Shown here: positions 3,229 through 15,723 of the stretch, piece by piece
Numbering within the stretch: position 1 is the stretch's first letter
Layout of the letters: each line of letters opens with the position of its first letter
Assembly (NCBI RefSeq): GCF_947487575.1
Contig: NZ_CANKXG010000002.1
Span: 167,179-231,178 of the forward strand
Direction: 5' to 3'
DNA length: 64,000 bases
Source: an uncultured Algibacter sp.
Lineage (GTDB): Bacteria > Bacteroidota > Bacteroidia > Flavobacteriales > Flavobacteriaceae
Program-made: the position numbers and the translations under genes
The notes under the pieces: model-generated
The model's input: only the letters and a program-made list of their open reading frames with translations
Databases searched by the model: none
What the model was told of the DNA's origin: nothing

Positions 3229-4053
3229 ATGACTATTAATTGCAAAGGCAAACTCATCGATTTATCTTCACCGAAAGTGATGGGTATTTTAAACATTACT
3301 CCAGATTCGTTTTATGATGGCGGTGCTCATAAAAATGAAGCGGAAGTTTTAAAGCATGTTGAACAGATGCTAAACGAAGGTGCTGCCTTTATTGATGTTG
3401 GTGCGTATAGCTCTAGACCAAATGCCGACCATGTTAGTGAAGCTAACGAATTAAAACGTATTCTTCCGATAGTAGAACTAATTCTGAAAGAATTCCCAGA
3501 AACCTTACTTTCTATTGATACTTTTAGAAGCAAAGTCGCTAAACAATGTATTGAAGCAGGTGCTTGTTTGATTAATGATATTTCAGCAGGTTTACTAGAT
3601 AAAAACATGCTGCAAACCATTGCTGATTTATATGTACCTTATATCATGATGCATATGCGAGGAACACCTCAAACTATGCAACAGCTAACCGAATATGACG
3701 ATTTAGTAAAAGATGTTCTATTCTATTTTTCTGAAAGAATAGCAGCTGCAAAAGCTTTGGGTATTGTTGATATTATTATTGACCCTGGATTTGGTTTTGC
3801 AAAAAATTTAGAACAGAATTTTGAATTATTGAATAAACTAGAACTTTTTAAAATGATTGAGAAACCGCTACTAATTGGTGTTTCAAGAAAATCCATGATT
3901 TACAAAACTTTAGACACCTCAGCTAAAGATGCTTTAAACGGAACTTCTGTTTTAAATACCGTTGTACTGCAAAAAGGCGCTTCTATTTTAAGAGTGCATG
4001 ACGTTAAAGAAGCTATAGAATGTATAAAATTAACTAGATTGTTAGATTGTTAG
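3229..4053 (+). CDS. folP: Dihydropteroate synthase
   Basis: MGILNITPDSFYDGG, IDVGAYSSRP, DPGFGF, SRKS, LRVHDV motifs. Confidence 0.97.
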   Translation: MTINCKGKLIDLSSPKVMGILNITPDSFYDGGAHKNEAEVLKHVEQMLNEGAAFIDVGAYSSRPNADHVSEANELKRILPIVELILKEFPETLLSIDTFRSKVAKQCIEAGACLINDISAGLLDKNMLQTIADLYVPYIMMHMRGTPQTMQQLTEYDDLVKDVLFYFSERIAAAKALGIVDIIIDPGFGFAKNLEQNFELLNKLELFKMIEKPLLIGVSRKSMIYKTLDTSAKDALNGTSVLNTVVLQKGASILRVHDVKEAIECIKLTRLLDC

Positions 4054-4777: not shown

Positions 4778-5563
4778 TTGGATATTTTTAAAGACCTTTT
4801 AAAACTTACTGTTGTTGACATCATAGATGTTATATTAGTAGCACTACTACTCTACTATGCTTACAGATTAATTAAAGGCACGGTTGCCATCAATATTTTT
4901 ATAGGCATCATAATTGTTTACGGTGCTTGGAGATTAACGGACTTTCTAGAAATGGAACTACTTACTGGTATTTTTGGTGGTTTTATGAAAGTAGGTATTA
5001 TTGCTTTAATAGTCGTTTTTCAGCCAGAAATAAGAAAGTTTTTGCTCATGGTTGGTTCAACTAATTTTGGTAGGCGACGCAAATTTTTACAACAAATAAA
5101 ATTCTTAAAAACAGAGAGTAGCGATGAAACTGATGTTGATGCCATAATTTCTGCCTGTGATAAAATGTCAGCGTCTAGAACTGGGGCGCTTATCGTTTTT
5201 GAGCGTAATAACAATCTAGATTTCCTATCGCAATCTGGTGATGAAATGAACATTAAAGTCACGCAACCCATTATAGAAAGTATTTTTTTCAAGAATAGTC
5301 CACTGCACGATGGCGCTATAATAGTTAGCGACAATATCGTAAAAGCAACACGAGTTATTTTACCTGTAAACAATGAAAAAAATATTCCGCAACGTTTTGG
5401 TTTACGACATCGAGCTGCTATTGGAGTTACCGAAAAAACAGATGCTCTAGCATTGGTTGTAAGTGAGGAAACTGGCCATATATCGTATTTTAAAGATGGA
5501 GAGTTTGTAGTTTTTGAAGACTCAACTGAACTTAATACCATGATTAAAACCGATTTAGCTTAA
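4778..5563 (+). CDS. cdaA: Diadenylate cyclase CdaA/DacA
   Basis: 3 N-terminal TMs, FQPEIR, PLHDGA and GLRHRAA motifs of the DisA_N domain; TTG start. Confidence 0.92.
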   Translation: MDIFKDLLKLTVVDIIDVILVALLLYYAYRLIKGTVAINIFIGIIIVYGAWRLTDFLEMELLTGIFGGFMKVGIIALIVVFQPEIRKFLLMVGSTNFGRRRKFLQQIKFLKTESSDETDVDAIISACDKMSASRTGALIVFERNNNLDFLSQSGDEMNIKVTQPIIESIFFKNSPLHDGAIIVSDNIVKATRVILPVNNEKNIPQRFGLRHRAAIGVTEKTDALALVVSEETGHISYFKDGEFVVFEDSTELNTMIKTDLA

Positions 5564-5690
5564 TAAAACAAAACTATCTTGCTTCTTTAAGCAACCGACT
5601 TTAACTATAAACAAATACCTAATATAATTTTTTTGATGACATTTTAAAGTTGTCTTTATGTAGAGATATAACACATTAATATCTTTTCGA

Positions 5691-6788
5691 ATGAAGACTC
5701 TATTTAAAATCATTTTATGCTTCATGATTGTTCTTTTTAACTACTCATGCGGACAATCTTCAAAATCATCAGAAACTCAAACCATTCAACTTAACGGAAA
5801 AACCTATACACTAAAAGAAGGTATTAACGCTTCCAAAGTTCAATTAAACAAAAAGCCAGAACCTAAGGTCATTTTTCACAAGATTGACGATACTCAAAGA
5901 AACATGGTAATGGGGTATCAGCCTATGCCAAGTGATTGGAAATACTTAGATAAACAGGATAAAGATGGGGTCTATATAAAAGGGCCAAATAATGTAAAAG
6001 TTTTTATGCCAAAATTCGATTTTTTTGTTTATTCACAACTACCTGGATACAATCAAATGAGCTCTGAAATGGGTCAACAAGTAAAACCCCTAAAAAGCGT
6101 AGAGCAGTTAGTTAAGGAAGAATTTGTTCCCTTATTTGGTAAAGAAGGTGCTAGACTATTAAAACAATATCATTTACCTAAGCTAAAAGCATACGATGAA
6201 AATTATGACCAACTCATGTTTAAATCCGTACCTCAACAAAAATCGTTTGAAGCCTATGCAACAGAATGGGAAGCTAAAGATGATAACAAATTTTTATTTA
6301 TAATTCGCCAGAATATAACTTACACCCAAGAAGCTTGTTATTGGGGATATACGCTAAATGCACTAGAATCTCCAAAACAATATTTTGAAACAGCAAAAAA
6401 CAATTATTTATATACACTAGAAAACACAAAATATAATCCACAATGGCGACATGCATGTTATATGGAAGATGCTCAAAAATCAGCTCAAGCCGGCAAATTG
6501 CATCAACAACGTATGGCCAATTTACGCGCCGAAGGACAAGCCATAATTGAAAGAGGTAAATCACATAGTGCCATGGTAGATAGAAACCACAAACGCTTTA
6601 TGGATGCTCATCTAGAAAGACAAACTGTTTCTACTGGTGGCACAAATTATCAAGTAGACGCTGGTAGTAATGTGTATTGGATAAATTCTAATGGTGAATA
6701 CATTCCTACTAATGATTTTAATTTTGACCCGAATTTAGACCCAAATCTTAACAGCCAAACTTGGACGAAAGGAACTAACAACAACTAA
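5691..6788 (+). CDS. Hypothetical lipoprotein
   Basis: Signal peptide with lipobox (NYS-C); 365-aa ORF, no family recognised. Confidence 0.6.
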   Translation: MKTLFKIILCFMIVLFNYSCGQSSKSSETQTIQLNGKTYTLKEGINASKVQLNKKPEPKVIFHKIDDTQRNMVMGYQPMPSDWKYLDKQDKDGVYIKGPNNVKVFMPKFDFFVYSQLPGYNQMSSEMGQQVKPLKSVEQLVKEEFVPLFGKEGARLLKQYHLPKLKAYDENYDQLMFKSVPQQKSFEAYATEWEAKDDNKFLFIIRQNITYTQEACYWGYTLNALESPKQYFETAKNNYLYTLENTKYNPQWRHACYMEDAQKSAQAGKLHQQRMANLRAEGQAIIERGKSHSAMVDRNHKRFMDAHLERQTVSTGGTNYQVDAGSNVYWINSNGEYIPTNDFNFDPNLDPNLNSQTWTKGTNNN

Positions 6789-6883
6789 AATTATGATAGA
6801 ATTAATACCAAGATAAAAGCTAAGAAAATTGACGTAGCGTTTTTAACATAAAAAGTGTATCTTTCTTGCGCTATTAACAACCT

Positions 6884-7474
6884 ATGCCAGAGAAAAGTAC
6901 ACTTCAAAAAGACTACTCAAGTCAAGAAAAACTTGTTAAGTCCATTCAAGCTAATGATGACAGCGTTCTAAAAAGCTTGTATAATGATAATTTTTATAAA
7001 ACAGAGCAATATATTTTAACAAATAGCGGCTCCGTTGATGAAGCTAAAGATATATTTCAAGAGGCTTTTGTAGCCGTTTGGGAGAATGTTCAGGATAATA
7101 AATTTGTACCAAAAAATGAATCGGCACTAAATGGATATTTATATACCATAGCTAAAAACAAATGGTTAAATCATTTAAATTCTGTTCGATATAGAAAAAC
7201 AAATTCATTTGAAAACCATGTGCAAACGTTAACAAATACAAACACCATTGAAAACGAAATCTTTAAAGAAGAAGATACTAATAAAATAAATGAAGTAGTT
7301 AGTGCTTTTGATAGTTTAGGAGAGGCTTGTAAAAAATTATTGTCTGTTTTTTATTATGATAACAAATCGCTTAGAGACATTTCAAAACTATTTAATGTAA
7401 CAGAAGCATCAGCACGAAATAAAAAATATCGTTGTATAGAAAAATTAAGAACACTGGTATTAAAATCTAATTAA
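6884..7474 (+). CDS. ECF sigma-70 factor
   Basis: Region 2 (DEAKDIFQEAF..W, YLYTIAKNKW) and region 4 (CKKLL...SLRDIS...YRC). Confidence 0.9.
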   Translation: MPEKSTLQKDYSSQEKLVKSIQANDDSVLKSLYNDNFYKTEQYILTNSGSVDEAKDIFQEAFVAVWENVQDNKFVPKNESALNGYLYTIAKNKWLNHLNSVRYRKTNSFENHVQTLTNTNTIENEIFKEEDTNKINEVVSAFDSLGEACKKLLSVFYYDNKSLRDISKLFNVTEASARNKKYRCIEKLRTLVLKSN

Positions 7475-7484
7475 ACCCTATAAA

Positions 7485-8225
7485 TTGGAAAATAGCAACC
7501 CCATATCGCCCGAACTTTTAGATACTATAGAACGGTATTTAAAAAACACCATGAATACAAACGAACGTGAAGTATTCGAGGAAAAATTAAAAGACAATAC
7601 AACACTTCAGCAACAGGTAAAAGATATTGAAACTATACTTTTTGGTGTTAGGAAAGCCATTTTTAAAAATAAAGCAAACCATTTTCATAAAACGCTAATA
7701 AATAAAGATTCAGAAATTAAAGCAGACAAGAAAGTATTTAATTTAAATTTTAAACACATGTCTATTGCCGCATCTGTAGTCTTATTATTGGGAAGTGTTT
7801 GGTTTTTTAATCAAAAAAAATCAAATAGTACCTTATTTGATAAATACTATATTGAAGATAGAGGCTTAGAAACAAACATGGGAGAAACAAACAATTATAC
7901 TTTTGATGATGCCATGGTAGATTATAAGCACGGTAAATATGATAAAGCCATTGAAAAATGGAATCTTCTCCAAAAAAACCAACCAAAAAATGACACCTTA
8001 AATTACTTTTTAGGTGTTGCGCATTTAGCAAATAAAGATGCTGACAAAGCCATTAAATTTTTAGAAACTACAGCAAATAACAGTGAAAGCACTTTCTTAA
8101 ACGAAGCCAATTTTTATTTAGGTCTTTCCTATTTAAAACTAGATAAAACGGATTTGGCCATTGAAACTTTACAAAAAAGTAATTCTGAAAGAAGCAAAGC
8201 GGTAATTGAAGCATTAAAAGAGTAA
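7485..8225 (+). CDS. Single-TM protein with helical N-terminal (anti-sigma-like) domain and C-terminal TPRs
   Basis: IERYL....EREVFEEKL N-domain, TM SIAASVVLLLGSVWFF, TPR-like YFLGVAHL / FYLGLSYL; TTG start directly after the ECF sigma gene. Confidence 0.7.
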   Translation: MENSNPISPELLDTIERYLKNTMNTNEREVFEEKLKDNTTLQQQVKDIETILFGVRKAIFKNKANHFHKTLINKDSEIKADKKVFNLNFKHMSIAASVVLLLGSVWFFNQKKSNSTLFDKYYIEDRGLETNMGETNNYTFDDAMVDYKHGKYDKAIEKWNLLQKNQPKNDTLNYFLGVAHLANKDADKAIKFLETTANNSESTFLNEANFYLGLSYLKLDKTDLAIETLQKSNSERSKAVIEALKE

Positions 8226-8235
8226 AAACCTGAAA

Positions 8236-11200
8236 ATGAATCTAAGATATATTCTTTTTGCTTTAATCACTTTTGTCTACGTACAAATACATTCAGCACA
8301 AAATACATCCACAACAGATTTAAATTATGTAAAAGAATTAATTACAGTAGATAGTCTCTCAAAAGCAGAAACAGAAATAGTATCGCAAATTAGTATATTC
8401 AAATCTAAGAACAATCACGATACTTTAGTACACTATATATATACGTTAGGTAAAATTCAAATACTTAAAAACGCACCTATTGATAAAGCTATTCTACTTT
8501 CAGAAACCATTTCAAAAGTAACAACAAGCAAAATCACACTAAGTAAATTAAATCTAGAACTAGCAAAATTGTACTTTGAAAAGGGAAATCAATCTGAGGC
8601 TTACCAATATGCAAAAAAAGCCAAAATGTTTGCTGAAGGTCTTACAAATAAAAGCTTATTGTTAGAAGCAGAATATTATCTAGGTGATTATTCCATGAAA
8701 CTAGGAAATATAACAAACCTAGAAAACCACATACGTGCTGCAAACAGCTTAATTAAAAAAAACAAAGATAAACCTTATGCTTACACAGCACGTGTTTTAA
8801 ATTTAATGGGAGCAGTTATGTTTTTTTCCTCAAAACAAGATAGTGCCGTTTACTACTTTGAAAATGCTTTAAAAAATATTAATAATCTTCCCAATAACAT
8901 AGAAAATCAATTATACCTGCCTGCTGCCATAAAAGGGAACTTATTTCTTATTAAACTTAATCAAGGTAAACATTCAGAAAGCAGGAAACTAGTTGAGGAA
9001 TCTTTAATTCTAAATCAAAAATTTTTAAACCAAACCAACAACCATCCCCTATTAAAACGAGTAAAACGAAATATTGCTCTAGGTTACACCAATTTATCTA
9101 GTTTGTATTTTGATTTAGGTGATTTTAACCGTTCAGACCAAATCACACAGTTATCTCTTGGTTTTGCTAAAGAAAACTTCTTGCCAAAAACTGAAGAATA
9201 CTTTTTAACCACATTAGCCGTAGCTGAAGTTAAGCACGCCAAACTTGAATTAAAAAAAGCACTTATATATCTTAAAGAAGCAGAAGCCTGTTTAGATAAT
9301 ATGCCCCAAGAAAACAATCAGCTTAGAGCATATTTATATAACGATTATGGTTCAACATTTTATAAAATGAAGAATTATGAAAAAGCTTTGTTTTATTTTG
9401 AAAAGAGTAATACGTTCCATGAAAAATCTAATCCAGATGAGTACGACTCCAATAGATTATATCAAACCATGAATTTTGGGATTCTATTAGGGAAAACAGG
9501 GCAAAAGGAAAAAGCAATAGATTATGTTACAAACGCCTACAATTATGTGGTAAAAGAAAAAAGGCAAAATAATTATTTAGAAAATGTTTTAATCTTAACA
9601 TTAGCAACTATAAATTTTGATTGTAACGATTATGAGCAAACTATAAAATGGTGTAATAAAAGCTTTAACATCTATAATAAAAACTCGAAAAACAAAGGAT
9701 ATGACAAACTCCTTTTTGAAGAAAAAAAAGCAGAACTCATTTTATTAAATGCTAAATCCAAATACCATTTAAATCAAGATAAAAGTGTTACATTTTTAAA
9801 AAGCCTATTATTAGAAATTGAAGAAGCTATACTAATTCTTGAAAACCGAAAATCTATAATTTCCTCACTTGAAAGTGTAAACACCCTATTAGAAGAAAAT
9901 AAGTCAGTTTTTGATTTTGCTAAAAAATTGAATTTAGAATTGTACAATTTAACAGAAGATTCAGCGTATTTAACCAAAGTTGTAAGTCTTCATGAATCTG
10001 CATTATATAATAGAATTAGGTCTCGTTTAAATATTAACAAAGGGACTTCTTTTGCAGATGTACCTCTAGAAATTATTGCAAAAGAGAATGAAATTAAAAA
10101 TAAACTAAATATCAAAATTGAGGAACAGGACAGTCAAGAAACAGCAATAGAAAATATTGTAAAAAGTAATGTAGAATGGCGTGAGTTTTTAGAGAATATT
10201 AAGAAAAACCATCCAAAGTATTACAAGATGCGTTATGGAACTATTGGAGAATCTTTAGCATTTTTACAAGATGATATAAACGAAAACACTTCTGTATTAC
10301 GATACTTTTTTATTGATGATGCATTGTATGTGTACTTACTAAAAAGAGAGAGTCAAAAATTATTTAAACTAGACCATAAATTAATTAAAAAACATATTGA
10401 TAAGCTTAATGAAAATCAATCTCAACTTTCAGAAACTAGTGATGTATTATATGAATTATATCAGAGTTTATGGAAGCCTTTTGAAGATGAAATAACCACT
10501 AAAAATATCATTATAATTCCAGACGGTAATTTATACAACATTAGTTTTGAAACGCTTACACCAAAGAAAATTAAAACGTTTAAAGATTTAGCTACAAATA
10601 GTCTTTTAGCAAATTATAACATCTCTTATAATTACAGTTTGTACTTGTTAGGGCAATATGAAAACACGACTAGTTATAAAAACAAGTTTATTGCCTTTGC
10701 ACCAGAGTTTAATGATGAAATGAAAAAGAATTATAAGCTTGCAATCACAGACTCTTTAAGTTATGATAAAACGTATCTAACATTACTGCAACAACCCTTT
10801 AATGTAGATTTAGCAAAAGCTTATGCTAAACTATTTGATGGCAACTACTTTTTAAATGAAAACTCAACGGAACGTATTTTTAAACAAAATGCCAGCGAGC
10901 ATAAAATTATACATATAGGCACGCATGCAGAATCAAACAATATAAGTCCAGAACTCTCACGTTTGCTTTTTGCTAAAAACGTTTCCAACGATAATGAAGA
11001 TGGTTTCTTATATGCTTACGAGATTTACGACACCAGCCTAAACTCTAATTTAGCTATCCTAACAGCATGTGAAACTGGAAAACCAAGTTACCAAGCTGGA
11101 GAAGGTATGATTTCTTTAGCACACGCCTTTAATTACGCTGGAAGCGAAAGCATATTAACAAGTTTATGGAAAGTCGATGAGCGCTCAACAGCAGAAATTA

Positions 11201-11448
11201 TTGAATCGTTTTACAAAAATATAGATGCTGAAAAACCAAAAGATGAAGCACTAAGATTAGCAAAACTAGATTATATAAATAATACTGAAGGTAGAACGGT
11301 TGCTCCAAAATTTTGGGCGGGATTAGTTTTAATGGGAGACGCTACGCCTATTGAAATCTCAAACGGCATGCCTATTTGGCAATGGTTACTTATTATTGGA
11401 AGTATTGTACTCGGAATTTTCTTTTTAAACAGATATAAAAAACGCTAA
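8236..11448 (+). CDS. TPR + CHAT (caspase-like) protease, exported and C-terminally membrane anchored
   Basis: Signal peptide, TPR array, IIIPDG.L, catalytic HIGTHA (His 10924-10926) and LTACETG (Cys 11068-11070), SLWKV, FWAG, C-terminal TM plus basic tail. Confidence 0.9.
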   Translation: MNLRYILFALITFVYVQIHSAQNTSTTDLNYVKELITVDSLSKAETEIVSQISIFKSKNNHDTLVHYIYTLGKIQILKNAPIDKAILLSETISKVTTSKITLSKLNLELAKLYFEKGNQSEAYQYAKKAKMFAEGLTNKSLLLEAEYYLGDYSMKLGNITNLENHIRAANSLIKKNKDKPYAYTARVLNLMGAVMFFSSKQDSAVYYFENALKNINNLPNNIENQLYLPAAIKGNLFLIKLNQGKHSESRKLVEESLILNQKFLNQTNNHPLLKRVKRNIALGYTNLSSLYFDLGDFNRSDQITQLSLGFAKENFLPKTEEYFLTTLAVAEVKHAKLELKKALIYLKEAEACLDNMPQENNQLRAYLYNDYGSTFYKMKNYEKALFYFEKSNTFHEKSNPDEYDSNRLYQTMNFGILLGKTGQKEKAIDYVTNAYNYVVKEKRQNNYLENVLILTLATINFDCNDYEQTIKWCNKSFNIYNKNSKNKGYDKLLFEEKKAELILLNAKSKYHLNQDKSVTFLKSLLLEIEEAILILENRKSIISSLESVNTLLEENKSVFDFAKKLNLELYNLTEDSAYLTKVVSLHESALYNRIRSRLNINKGTSFADVPLEIIAKENEIKNKLNIKIEEQDSQETAIENIVKSNVEWREFLENIKKNHPKYYKMRYGTIGESLAFLQDDINENTSVLRYFFIDDALYVYLLKRESQKLFKLDHKLIKKHIDKLNENQSQLSETSDVLYELYQSLWKPFEDEITTKNIIIIPDGNLYNISFETLTPKKIKTFKDLATNSLLANYNISYNYSLYLLGQYENTTSYKNKFIAFAPEFNDEMKKNYKLAITDSLSYDKTYLTLLQQPFNVDLAKAYAKLFDGNYFLNENSTERIFKQNASEHKIIHIGTHAESNNISPELSRLLFAKNVSNDNEDGFLYAYEIYDTSLNSNLAILTACETGKPSYQAGEGMISLAHAFNYAGSESILTSLWKVDERSTAEIIESFYKNIDAEKPKDEALRLAKLDYINNTEGRTVAPKFWAGLVLMGDATPIEISNGMPIWQWLLIIGSIVLGIFFLNRYKKR

Positions 11449-14716: not shown

Positions 14717-15723
14717 ATAGTAGTTATTCTAACTTCTTTTTTTCCTCTTCTTCTCTTTCTTCTCTAATTTTTATCTTCATTGGATTTATTACTCTTTCAA
14801 TAAAAACTTCATTATAAATCGGCTCATAATCATAAATTACAATTCTTCGATTTGTGTCAATAAGATTAGATAATAATTTTGAAGCTAAATCCGCAACTGT
14901 TCCTGGTATTTTCCCAAAAGTCACATCGACTATTTTAGGTGTAATAGATAATGTTGTAAGAATACTTTTTTTAATATTAATTAATCCGTTATGTTTTCTG
15001 TAAAGGTTAATACTATTCTGCTGAATGTTTGACAAAGCAGTATTTTTATTAACTTCTTCTTTATCTAATTCTGAATGAGCGGTTTTATAATCTAAAAAGG
15101 GCTTTTCTTTGAAGACTTTTTCAAAACGTTTAAAATCTTCTTTACTCAAATAATGTTTTGTATTCGGTAAATCAATAGTGTCTTGACAAATTGAATTTAT
15201 TAAATATTTAATTGGATGGAAAAGTTCTAGAGGTAGGACTTCTTTTGATTTTTCTAAATCTTGAGTTATTGTACTAACTTTTCTAAATAATGATGTTCCA
15301 GTATTTGAAGCTATCATAATATCTTGAAGAAGCGTTTTAATACTCCATACTTCCTGATATTTTTCGTCTCTATGGTAATCTTCAGGAAGATAATATTGAA
15401 ATATATCTTCTATCGATTTTAGAGCGTTTTCAACTTTACTTTCCGAAATATTAGTTGCTTTTTCTTTTAAGAAATTATAGAGTCTTTTTTCGTGTTTTTC
15501 AGATACAAAATTATTGTAATCTTTCATTGAACTCGTAGCGAAAGAGTCTACGCCACATTGCATTAGATAATCAAATGTTACTGCATAAGTATTGATTTCT
15601 TCGATTTTCAGAGATTCAATAAATACGTCTTCATTAGATATCTGTTCAACAACTGACATTTGACCTAATAAATATGGACTTACATATAATTTTCTGCTAC
15701 TCATTTTCTTCTATTATTGCCAA
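14591..15723 (-). mobile_element. Integron-type gene cassette (1133 bp), solitary
   Basis: Starts TTGGCAAT, single ORF, ends ATTGCCAAC + attC; start and end boxes are complementary as in cassettes. Confidence 0.7.
14724..15704 (-). CDS. Orphan hypothetical protein (cassette gene)
   Basis: 326-aa ORF filling the cassette; no signal peptide, no family recognised. Confidence 0.75.
   Translation of the reverse strand: MSSRKLYVSPYLLGQMSVVEQISNEDVFIESLKIEEINTYAVTFDYLMQCGVDSFATSSMKDYNNFVSEKHEKRLYNFLKEKATNISESKVENALKSIEDIFQYYLPEDYHRDEKYQEVWSIKTLLQDIMIASNTGTSLFRKVSTITQDLEKSKEVLPLELFHPIKYLINSICQDTIDLPNTKHYLSKEDFKRFEKVFKEKPFLDYKTAHSELDKEEVNKNTALSNIQQNSINLYRKHNGLINIKKSILTTLSITPKIVDVTFGKIPGTVADLASKLLSNLIDTNRRIVIYDYEPIYNEVFIERVINPMKIKIREEREEEEKKKLE

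Follow-up and report, generated by a model that had tools for sequence, protein, structure and literature searches.

A four-gene locus and its proteins

The window analysed here is a 64,000-nt stretch of DNA from an uncultured Algibacter sp. (NZ_CANKXG010000002.1, positions 167,179-231,178), and feature coordinates count from its start. The genome to which it belongs comprises 3.5 Mb in 36 contigs. On the plus strand of the window lie three open reading frames (ORFs), with gaps of 10 nt between consecutive genes. They encode a sigma factor of the extracytoplasmic function (ECF) type, a membrane protein with an anti-sigma-like N-terminal domain and tetratricopeptide repeats (TPRs), and an exported TPR protein that carries a CHAT caspase-like protease domain (Table 1). 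A first-pass annotation of the same DNA had named these three products and pointed to their tight, co-oriented packing. The ORF table bears out the packing, and profile matches together with an AlphaFold 2 (AF2) model bear out the identities. To this picture the present analysis adds a fourth linked gene encoding a lipoprotein, an ECF-type promoter, a predicted regulon, a picture of two paralogous systems, and domain-wise covariation among the proteins. The protease and the anti-sigma likely act together to control this sigma factor, and the unit of lipoprotein, sigma, anti-sigma and CHAT genes probably switches on a small set of genes for envelope proteins.

The first product of the triad scores 76.7 bits against the ECF family TIGR02937 (cut-off 42.9) and matches Sigma70_r2 (E=3.5e-8, 33.6 bits, cut-off 24), with r4 matches that are weak, at 19 bits. 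As in ECF group 4, sigma-2 and sigma-4 domains are the only ones present, the length falls in the range of about 170-200 aa, and the score lies above the curated threshold.

The second product was modelled by AF2 with a predicted local distance difference test score (pLDDT) of 87. Three N-terminal helices (residues 9-19, 25-37 and 39-72) are followed by a disordered linker (73-88), the transmembrane (TM) helix (89-109), a short helix (113-121), an ordered non-helical loop (122-136), and three TPRs with a capping helix (137-245). Pfam TPR repeats were found at residues 139-232. The earlier description of this protein as a helical N-domain, one TM helix and periplasmic TPRs therefore agrees with both the AF2 model and the Pfam TPR matches, while the profile matches of the N-domain itself are weak. 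Those matches are to the anti-sigma model NF047528 (E=7e-4, below its cut-off) and to RslA of M. tuberculosis (3hug_B, E=0.076). The layout is that of a class I anti-sigma, with a helical N-domain at 9-72 ahead of a single TM helix and a sigma gene adjoining in 80/80 related loci. Within the anti-sigma family, zf-HC2 was weakly matched by 6 of 89 N-domains. The window protein has no zinc ligands, and a relative (L136) carries HLIDCPLC (HxxxCxxC) at the aligned position. It is probable from these sequence features that the domain is a zinc-less class I anti-sigma domain. The Pfam family Nif11 was weakly matched by more N-domains than zf-HC2 (17 of 89, best E=6e-5), which probably reflects a likeness among short helical domains.

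The periplasmic part of the anti-sigma is small and ordered. Its best Foldseek matches are three-TPR modules that clamp short peptides (HOP, CHIP and CTPR390-peptide complexes). The juxtamembrane loop is non-helical and yet modelled with a pLDDT of about 82-85, and its residues D125, G127, L128, T130 and M132 are invariant across 71 sequences.

The third product carries a strong match to the CHAT family PF12770 (E=7e-44, 150.9 bits, cut-off 24; residues 737-1035). His897 (in GTHAES) and Cys945 (in ACETG), with long flanking motifs, are invariant in 71/71 aligned CHAT proteins. The intact His-Cys dyad of the first-pass annotation, with its Cys codon at 11068-11070, is thus a feature of the whole alignment, and its invariance argues for selection that keeps the enzyme active.

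Targeting signals at both ends of the CHAT protein are equally well kept. The hydrophobic N-terminus and conserved AQ of the signal peptide occurred in 10/10 homologues examined, and likewise in CHAT proteins encoded convergently to the anti-sigma gene (see below). The C-terminal TM segment has a hydropathy of 2.05 and was modelled as a helix at residues 1047-1069; together with its basic tail it is present in every homologue examined, convergent ones included. By the positive-inside rule, a signal peptide combined with a C-terminal TM helix and basic tail would leave most of the CHAT protein on the periplasmic side of the inner membrane, anchored in that membrane. The conserved topology signals support the earlier proposal that the protease domain and the TPRs of the anti-sigma share a compartment.

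The N-terminal half of the CHAT protein behaves very differently from the catalytic half, being almost unalignable among the same 71 proteins. This TPR arm was modelled at a pLDDT of about 90 and has a mean pairwise distance of about 1.7; the profile of the protein matches TPRs of the kinesin-light-chain type. In the nearest relatives (L011, L012, L020, L049 and L089; Hyunsoonleella and kin) the CHAT protein is about 950-957 aa long and begins at profile position ~140, so that some 115 N-terminal residues of the arm are missing relative to the window protein.

Single sequences and full-length profiles found TPR proteins only in the PDB, and domain-restricted profiles were needed. With a profile of the CHAT half, the sole PDB match was 8rot_B, near the catalytic Cys and at E=2.4; this is a CHAT protein of 991 aa, the length given for the Myxococcus anti-sigma DdvA discussed below. 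A fold search with the whole CHAT model placed human separase among the top matches, over more than 1000 aligned columns and with low TM-scores (~0.26).

Table 1. Features of the module, with positions in the window and the evidence for each.
Feature	Position	Strand	Evidence or remark
Predicted ECF-type promoter TGATGACATTTT-N9-TTTATGT	5634..5661	+	-35-like GATGACA, -10-like TATGT; 30 nt before lipoprotein start codon
Lipoprotein, 365 aa, signal peptide and Cys20	5691..6788	+	No family match; fourth module member, predicted first gene of autoregulated unit
Conserved sigma-proximal element GTATCTTTC	6857..6865	+	18 nt before sigma start codon
ECF (group 4) sigma-70 factor, 196 aa	6884..7474	+	TIGR02937 and Sigma70_r2/r4 matches; distances covary best with anti-sigma N-domain, r=0.65
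Anti-sigma-like protein, 246 aa	7485..8225	+	TTG start
Anti-sigma: anti-sigma-like N-domain on the cytoplasmic side, residues 1-72, bundle of three helices that lacks zinc ligands	7485..7700	+	AF2 helices, weak anti-sigma profile matches
Anti-sigma: single TM helix, residues 89-109	7749..7811	+	AF2 helix; hydrophobic stretch kept across alignment
Anti-sigma: juxtamembrane loop, ordered, residues 122-136, candidate region for contact or cleavage	7848..7892	+	Invariant residues, AF2
Anti-sigma: periplasmic three-repeat TPR domain and capping helix, residues 137-245	7893..8219	+	Pfam TPR, Foldseek, covariation
TPR-CHAT protein, 1070 aa	8236..11448	+	
CHAT protein: N-terminal signal peptide, residues 1-21, ...IHS/AQN	8236..8298	+	Hydrophobic N-terminus, conserved AQ
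CHAT protein: hypervariable TPR superhelix, residues ~29-600, presumed sensor arm	8320..10035	+	AF2 helical repeats, profile match, distances
CHAT protein: caspase-like protease domain, residues 737-1035	10444..11340	+	PF12770; His897 codon 10924-10926, Cys945 codon 11068-11070
CHAT protein: C-terminal TM anchor, residues 1044-1066, then basic tail RYKKR	11365..11433	+	Hydropathy, conservation, AF2

Linkage, gene order and covariation

The three genes of the triad travel together. An anti-sigma profile search of species-representative genomes returned at least 265 relatives, and neighbourhoods were counted for the best 80 of these, which are essentially all from Flavobacteriaceae (the closest being Hyunsoonleella aquatilis, 72%). 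The sigma gene lies directly upstream of the anti-sigma gene in 80/80 loci and the CHAT gene directly downstream in 78/80, and the anti-sigma and TPR-CHAT are separate genes in all 80+ related loci. The first-pass annotation had suggested a synteny survey as a check, and the linkage found is far above chance. The two loci in which CHAT is not adjacent show it displaced and split (L018) or decayed (L042). In L018 the pieces have moved by about 4.6 kb. L042 retains an intact anti-sigma next to a sigma factor cut to 123 aa and a CHAT remnant of 113 aa, and in a further locus (L027) the CHAT gene is frameshifted.

Probing from the protease gave the same picture: all 7 loci found with the CHAT protein carry both upstream genes. 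The window genome has exactly two CHAT-domain genes, both of them in triads. The second triad lies on contig C7, where the sigma factor is 47% and the TM-TPR protein 43% identical to those in the window. The whole module is duplicated as a unit in this genome.

Beyond the close relatives, the association persists in other gene orders. In a sample of 401 genomes across the phylum, 8 had close anti-sigma matches (E<1e-45), and weaker full-length relatives with the same architecture occurred in more. Among 20 neighbourhoods drawn from this sample, CHAT adjoins the anti-sigma gene in 7/7 close relatives and in 7/13 distant ones; in 6 of the latter 7 the two genes are on opposite strands and meet tail-to-tail. 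The alignment of anti-sigmas of this convergent type was too divergent for a locus scan, and a single CHAT protein served as the probe instead. This probe turned up 11 close relatives, each of them convergent with an anti-sigma/sigma pair and belonging to Gelidibacter, Cellulophaga, Mariniflexile, Polaribacter or Maribacter, as well as two distant relatives in which the pair is head-to-head (divergent) with it. An association kept across three gene orders argues for a functional tie and not for mere hitch-hiking in an operon.

In the convergent loci the CHAT gene does not have the upstream element that is conserved before the sigma gene of that clade. Here CHAT does not appear to be simply an output of the sigma factor, which weakly disfavours a pure output role. 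In the same loci (L161-L171), about 30 nt before the CHAT start codon, there is a GC-rich hairpin with a T-run behind it (AAGCTCTCC...GGAGGGCTTTTTTT); it abuts the annotated ATG and could be the terminator of the upstream gene or a regulatory hairpin.

Some loci depart from one CHAT gene per sigma/anti-sigma pair. Two tandem TPR-CHAT genes follow a single pair in L009 (2665-9225), L015, L022, L040 and L168. The tandem copies are only ~40% identical, and may be two sensors feeding one switch. In L136 (6848-10896) the anti-sigma gene is followed by a gene for a 250-aa protein consisting of the CHAT catalytic end and C-terminal TM helix only, and an 855-aa TPR lipoprotein is encoded convergently.

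Pairwise distances calculated for each domain over 72 triads indicate which parts of the three proteins have changed together. Sigma distances follow most closely those of the anti-sigma N-domain (r=0.65; partial r 0.55 after removal of the CHAT catalytic distance). Distances of the anti-sigma TPR domain are closest to those of the CHAT catalytic domain, with an r of 0.64 that falls to a partial r of 0.53 after removal of sigma (Mantel p=0.001). The crossed pairings are lower, at 0.51 for the anti-sigma TPR domain with sigma and 0.46 for sigma with the CHAT catalytic domain. Against the CHAT catalytic domain, the difference between the anti-sigma TPR domain and sigma (0.64 vs 0.46) is 0.18, with a confidence interval (CI) of 0.06-0.26 from a bootstrap over taxa; a second contrast bootstrapped in the same way gave 0.15 (CI 0.06-0.22). 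The TPR arm of CHAT is uncoupled from all other domains, and its correlation with the anti-sigma TPR domain is only ~0.04-0.09. This pattern points to two interaction blocks: the sigma factor with the N-domain, and the periplasmic TPR domain with the protease domain.

Predicted promoters and regulon, and the neighbourhood

The fourth member of the module encodes a 365-aa lipoprotein that matched no Pfam or NCBIfam profile. Among the first 9 loci, 5 have it upstream of the triad, and elsewhere one or two further lipoprotein genes stand between it and the sigma gene. The window genome has exactly two copies, one for each triad. When the lipoprotein was used as the probe, a triad followed downstream on the same strand in 18/21 loci, and 2 of the 3 exceptions are on contigs that end too early. 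It is absent from about 40% of loci. As a candidate ligand of the CHAT TPR arm the lipoprotein was rejected, as it showed no specific covariation with the arm (r=0.00). A homologue of 33% identity occurs on a contig labelled Corallococcus carmarthensis (Myxococcota; L159), which ends just after the gene; this could be contamination or horizontal transfer.

A two-block motif of the form TGATGACATTTT-N8/9-(T)CGATGT precedes these lipoprotein genes. It was found on the strand of the sigma gene and no more than 4.5 kb upstream of it in 65/72 loci, often once per lipoprotein gene, and 90-250 nt before the sigma gene where no lipoprotein gene intervenes. The copy at 5634-5661 is the only match in the window, with 0.01 expected by chance. 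A matrix trained without the window genome gave that site 19.8 bits and found 10 sites scoring 12 bits or more in the genome; the maximum in a shuffled 600-kb control was 7.4 bits. At least 8 of these 10 sites fall 3-30 nt before the starts of genes for small exported proteins. We infer that the motif is a promoter dependent on the sigma factor. No plus-strand terminator was detected between 5691 and 11448, and the window unit would be autoregulated from 5634-5661. A scan with the sigma-70 consensus performed at chance level (30 found vs 30.5 expected); this consensus is not applicable to the promoters of this phylum.

The -10 block of the motif follows the clade of the sigma factor. T(T/G)TATGT occurs in 5/5 loci of the clade to which the window's sigma factor belongs, and CGATG at 69 sites elsewhere, with two exceptions. 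In the window genome, motifs of the TATGT form precede five genes: that of the window lipoprotein, those for three further lipoproteins of 387 aa (with repeats), 169 aa (lipocalin-like) and 175 aa, and that for a 239-aa outer-membrane barrel of the eight-strand type. The predicted promoters of this sigma factor are at C2:172812 (window 5634), C1:390618, C1:119320, C4:273328 and C7:119969. The CGATG form precedes three lipoprotein genes that are at or related to the C7 locus. From these promoter sequences the two paralogous systems appear to be insulated from one another. The C7 module itself (~111573-119969, L010) runs from an outer-membrane barrel gene and a lipoprotein gene through two more lipoprotein genes to sigma, anti-sigma and CHAT. 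One TATGT-type site stands before its barrel gene, a hint of cross-regulation between both systems.

A second conserved element lies closer to the sigma gene. It reads GTAT(C/A)TTTC and stands about 25-30 nt ahead of most sigma start codons; in most loci its core, GTAT[AC]T, is 16-42 nt upstream of the start. As a regulon motif this element was rejected: matrices of 48 nt and of the core alone found no genome sites beyond the two sigma operons. In the larger clade it takes the form TTTG-N19-TAnnTTTC, which we take to resemble the housekeeping -33/-7 promoter of Bacteroidota. It is possibly a basal promoter of the housekeeping type.

The genes around the module have housekeeping functions (folP, cdaA, an ABC exporter and truA). 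Directly upstream are cdaA, a diadenylate cyclase with CdaA_N and DAC domains (4778-5563), and folP (3229-4053), neither of which is kept beside the module in other genomes. An ORF on the minus strand at 14724-15704 encodes a 326-aa protein with no Pfam match and a C-terminal tail rich in glutamate and lysine. The first-pass annotation had proposed that the module operates with no CRISPR system, and this holds: the window is free of CRISPR arrays, and another contig carries the only Cas1 of the genome. PADLOC defence models found no match around the module.

A possible mechanism, its rivals and known systems

A related idea has been put forward for DdvA of Myxococcus xanthus. DdvA is the transmembrane anti-sigma of the sigma factor DdvS, a single protein of 991 aa whose N-domain is of the zinc type and whose TPR-CHAT region is periplasmic (PMC11506125; PDB 8ROT/8RW5). 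Its CHAT domain was proposed as a site-1 protease in 2024; this proposal is unproven, whereas degradation of truncated DdvA forms by RseP was shown (PMC11506125). According to its authors, DdvA-like proteins occur only in Myxococcota and in one Comamonas (PMC11506125), whereas the split form reaches at least 265 species genomes. The site-1 TPR-CHAT concept is therefore not new, and the split form of Flavobacteriaceae is undescribed; full-text literature searches found no description of a split sigma/anti-sigma/CHAT module.

Common to the two systems are an ECF sigma factor, a single-pass anti-sigma (a probable one here) with a small cytoplasmic three-helix domain, and a large TPR-CHAT region, predicted to be periplasmic here, with an intact His-Cys dyad. 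They differ in several ways. DdvA is one polypeptide that dimerises, with self-cleavage proposed to occur in trans, whereas here the anti-sigma and the TPR-CHAT protein are separate genes with their own targeting signals. The relation in sequence is remote (E=2.4), the N-domain in the window has no zinc motif, and the anti-sigma has a small TPR domain of its own. DdvS drives a defence island of CRISPR and cyclic-oligonucleotide-based anti-phage signalling (CBASS) systems, whereas the window module has housekeeping neighbours and a predicted regulon of envelope lipoproteins. The module would work like the DdvA proposal but lies outside the DdvA family.

Our preferred mechanism runs as follows. 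In the resting state, the cytoplasmic three-helix N-domain of the anti-sigma would hold the sigma factor, and its small periplasmic TPR domain would sit beside the membrane-tethered CHAT protein, the bulk of the protease being periplasmic. A periplasmic cue read by the hypervariable TPR superhelix of CHAT would activate the His897/Cys945 site, and the activated protease would make a site-1 cut in the periplasmic domain of the anti-sigma. An RseP-type protease would then cut within the membrane and free the sigma factor. The candidate for this site-2 step is the single PF02163 (M50) gene of the genome, which encodes 443 aa at C10:87366-88619. Freed sigma would transcribe from TGATGACATTTT-N9-TTTATGT promoters. 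Its targets would be the module itself, in a positive feedback that starts at the lipoprotein gene, and some four unlinked genes, which encode lipoproteins and a small barrel of the outer membrane. The scheme builds on observed features, namely what the genes encode, the topology signals, the obligate linkage, the distribution of the promoter motif and the covariation between domains; the cue, the binding of sigma, the cleavage and the dependence of the promoter on sigma are inferred. That CHAT cleaves the anti-sigma as its site-1 protease, as the first-pass annotation proposed, is plausible, at somewhat under an even chance.

Several observations weigh against such a cut. Site-1 cleavage is directly evidenced neither here nor for DdvA in the literature (PMC11506125). 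Covariation indicates a partnership without telling who cuts whom. From the end of the TM helix at residue 109 to the start of the first periplasmic helix at 113, the AF2 model leaves hardly any flexible linker to be cut, in contrast to the long one of DdvA. The juxtamembrane motif was ruled out as a CHAT-specific cleavage site, as its LYxxYFxP core is also found in relatives that have no CHAT. The catalytic core is badly modelled (pLDDT <50 at residues 807-980), and the geometry of the active site cannot be read from the model. Finally, 6/13 distant anti-sigma relatives of the same architecture have no CHAT nearby. No substitute protease was found beside these anti-sigmas, whose neighbours encode helicase, GNAT, DsbD and VWA proteins, and the family can evidently be regulated in other ways.

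The scant linker would matter less if CHAT cleaved something else. It may act on another periplasmic protein, such as a lipoprotein of the regulon or a misassembled envelope protein, to release a peptide that binds the TPR clamp of the anti-sigma; peptide binding would then free the sigma factor via a general protease or a conformational change. In the sigma-E pathway, the C-termini of outer-membrane proteins activate DegS in a comparable manner. The likeness of the anti-sigma periplasmic domain to three-TPR peptide clamps favours this explanation, as does the tight linkage of lipoprotein genes that bear the module promoter, and the covariation between the anti-sigma TPR domain and the CHAT catalytic domain suits docking as well as cleavage. 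We nevertheless consider it unlikely. No candidate substrate covaries specifically (r=0.00 for the lipoprotein with the CHAT TPR arm), the lipoprotein is missing from some 40% of loci, and the module comes with no dedicated second protease. Nor is there a gene for a small peptide with a double-glycine (GG) leader in the 360-nt gap downstream of the triad or nearby.

The covariation would equally suit an inhibitor and its enzyme. CHAT could be the effector and the anti-sigma TPR domain its keeper, in the manner of securin and separase, with a cue that releases both sigma and protease; freed CHAT would remodel or degrade envelope proteins while the sigma factor supplies replacements. Co-transcription and likely positive feedback place CHAT under the promoter of the sigma factor in this clade, with no terminator from 5691 to 11448; the handful of further targets found by the motif scan all encode envelope proteins, and separase is among the top whole-protein fold matches. 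Set against this, a convergent or divergent CHAT gene is a separate transcription unit without a sigma-type upstream element, the hypervariable TPR arm resembles a sensor and not an effector with a fixed substrate, and tandem CHAT genes per sigma/anti-sigma pair suit several inputs that lead to one output. On balance this arrangement seems quite improbable.

We give least credence, and only a slim chance, to CHAT as a non-proteolytic, RseB-like co-sensor or scaffold that shields the anti-sigma from a general site-1 protease until ligand binds the TPR arm, its catalytic residues being used otherwise, for instance in self-processing: the same linkage and covariation would fit, DdvA dyad mutants were wild-type-like under the conditions tested and a bulky domain sterically blocks RseP (PMC11506125), but the invariance of His897, Cys945 and the surrounding motifs in 71/71 proteins speaks for an enzyme that is active on a conserved substrate, and no linked gene encodes a general site-1 protease.

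Cleavage of the anti-sigma by CHAT would have parallels in other systems as well. According to PMC11506125 and PMC10028731, the type III-E craspase consists of Cas7-11 and the TPR-CHAT protease Csx29, whose cleavage substrate, Csx30, is bound to an ECF-like sigma factor. An allosterically gated TPR-CHAT protease and a sigma-regulator substrate would be common to both. Craspase is cytoplasmic, RNA-guided and CRISPR-encoded, whereas the window protein is exported and membrane-anchored and has no cas context. Separase likewise has a CHAT/caspase-like domain behind a TPR-like superhelix, but is eukaryotic, cytoplasmic or nuclear, and regulated by securin.

Classical regulated intramembrane proteolysis (RIP) of ECF anti-sigmas is represented by RseA/DegS/RseP, RsiW/PrsW and RsiV, in which the site-1 enzyme is a serine protease (DegS), a metalloprotease (PrsW) or signal peptidase. 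The logic proposed here is the same, from a periplasmic cue through a site-1 cut and an M50 site-2 cut to release of the sigma factor and an autoregulated operon. What differs is the candidate site-1 enzyme, an operon-encoded cysteine protease of the caspase fold with its own TPR sensor.

There are several reasons why the split form is of interest. First, a link between an ECF sigma factor and a periplasmic CHAT domain has been studied in DdvA alone, where protease and presumed substrate form one chain, so that the site-1 idea has not been testable in that system. With protease, anti-sigma and sigma in separate genes, clean single-gene tests become possible. Second, the analysis supplies a predicted promoter that can serve as a reporter, a short predicted envelope regulon, and a pair of domains expected to touch. 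Third, the two apparently insulated copies in one genome would amount to a natural specificity experiment.

A tentative generalisation can be drawn from this locus and its relatives. Exported TPR-CHAT proteins may be widespread and previously unrecognised ligand-gated site-1 proteases for ECF anti-sigmas, caspase-fold enzymes with a fast-evolving TPR sensor arm that would cut, or be docked to and controlled by, the small periplasmic TPR domain of a separate anti-sigma. Each paralogue would be insulated by its own surface between protease and anti-sigma and its own -10 box, and the fused DdvA would be a derived special case of a general Bacteroidota mechanism. If CHAT does gate the sigma factor, a caspase-fold enzyme would join the short list of site-1 proteases, and the module that hundreds of marine Flavobacteriaceae carry would be explained.

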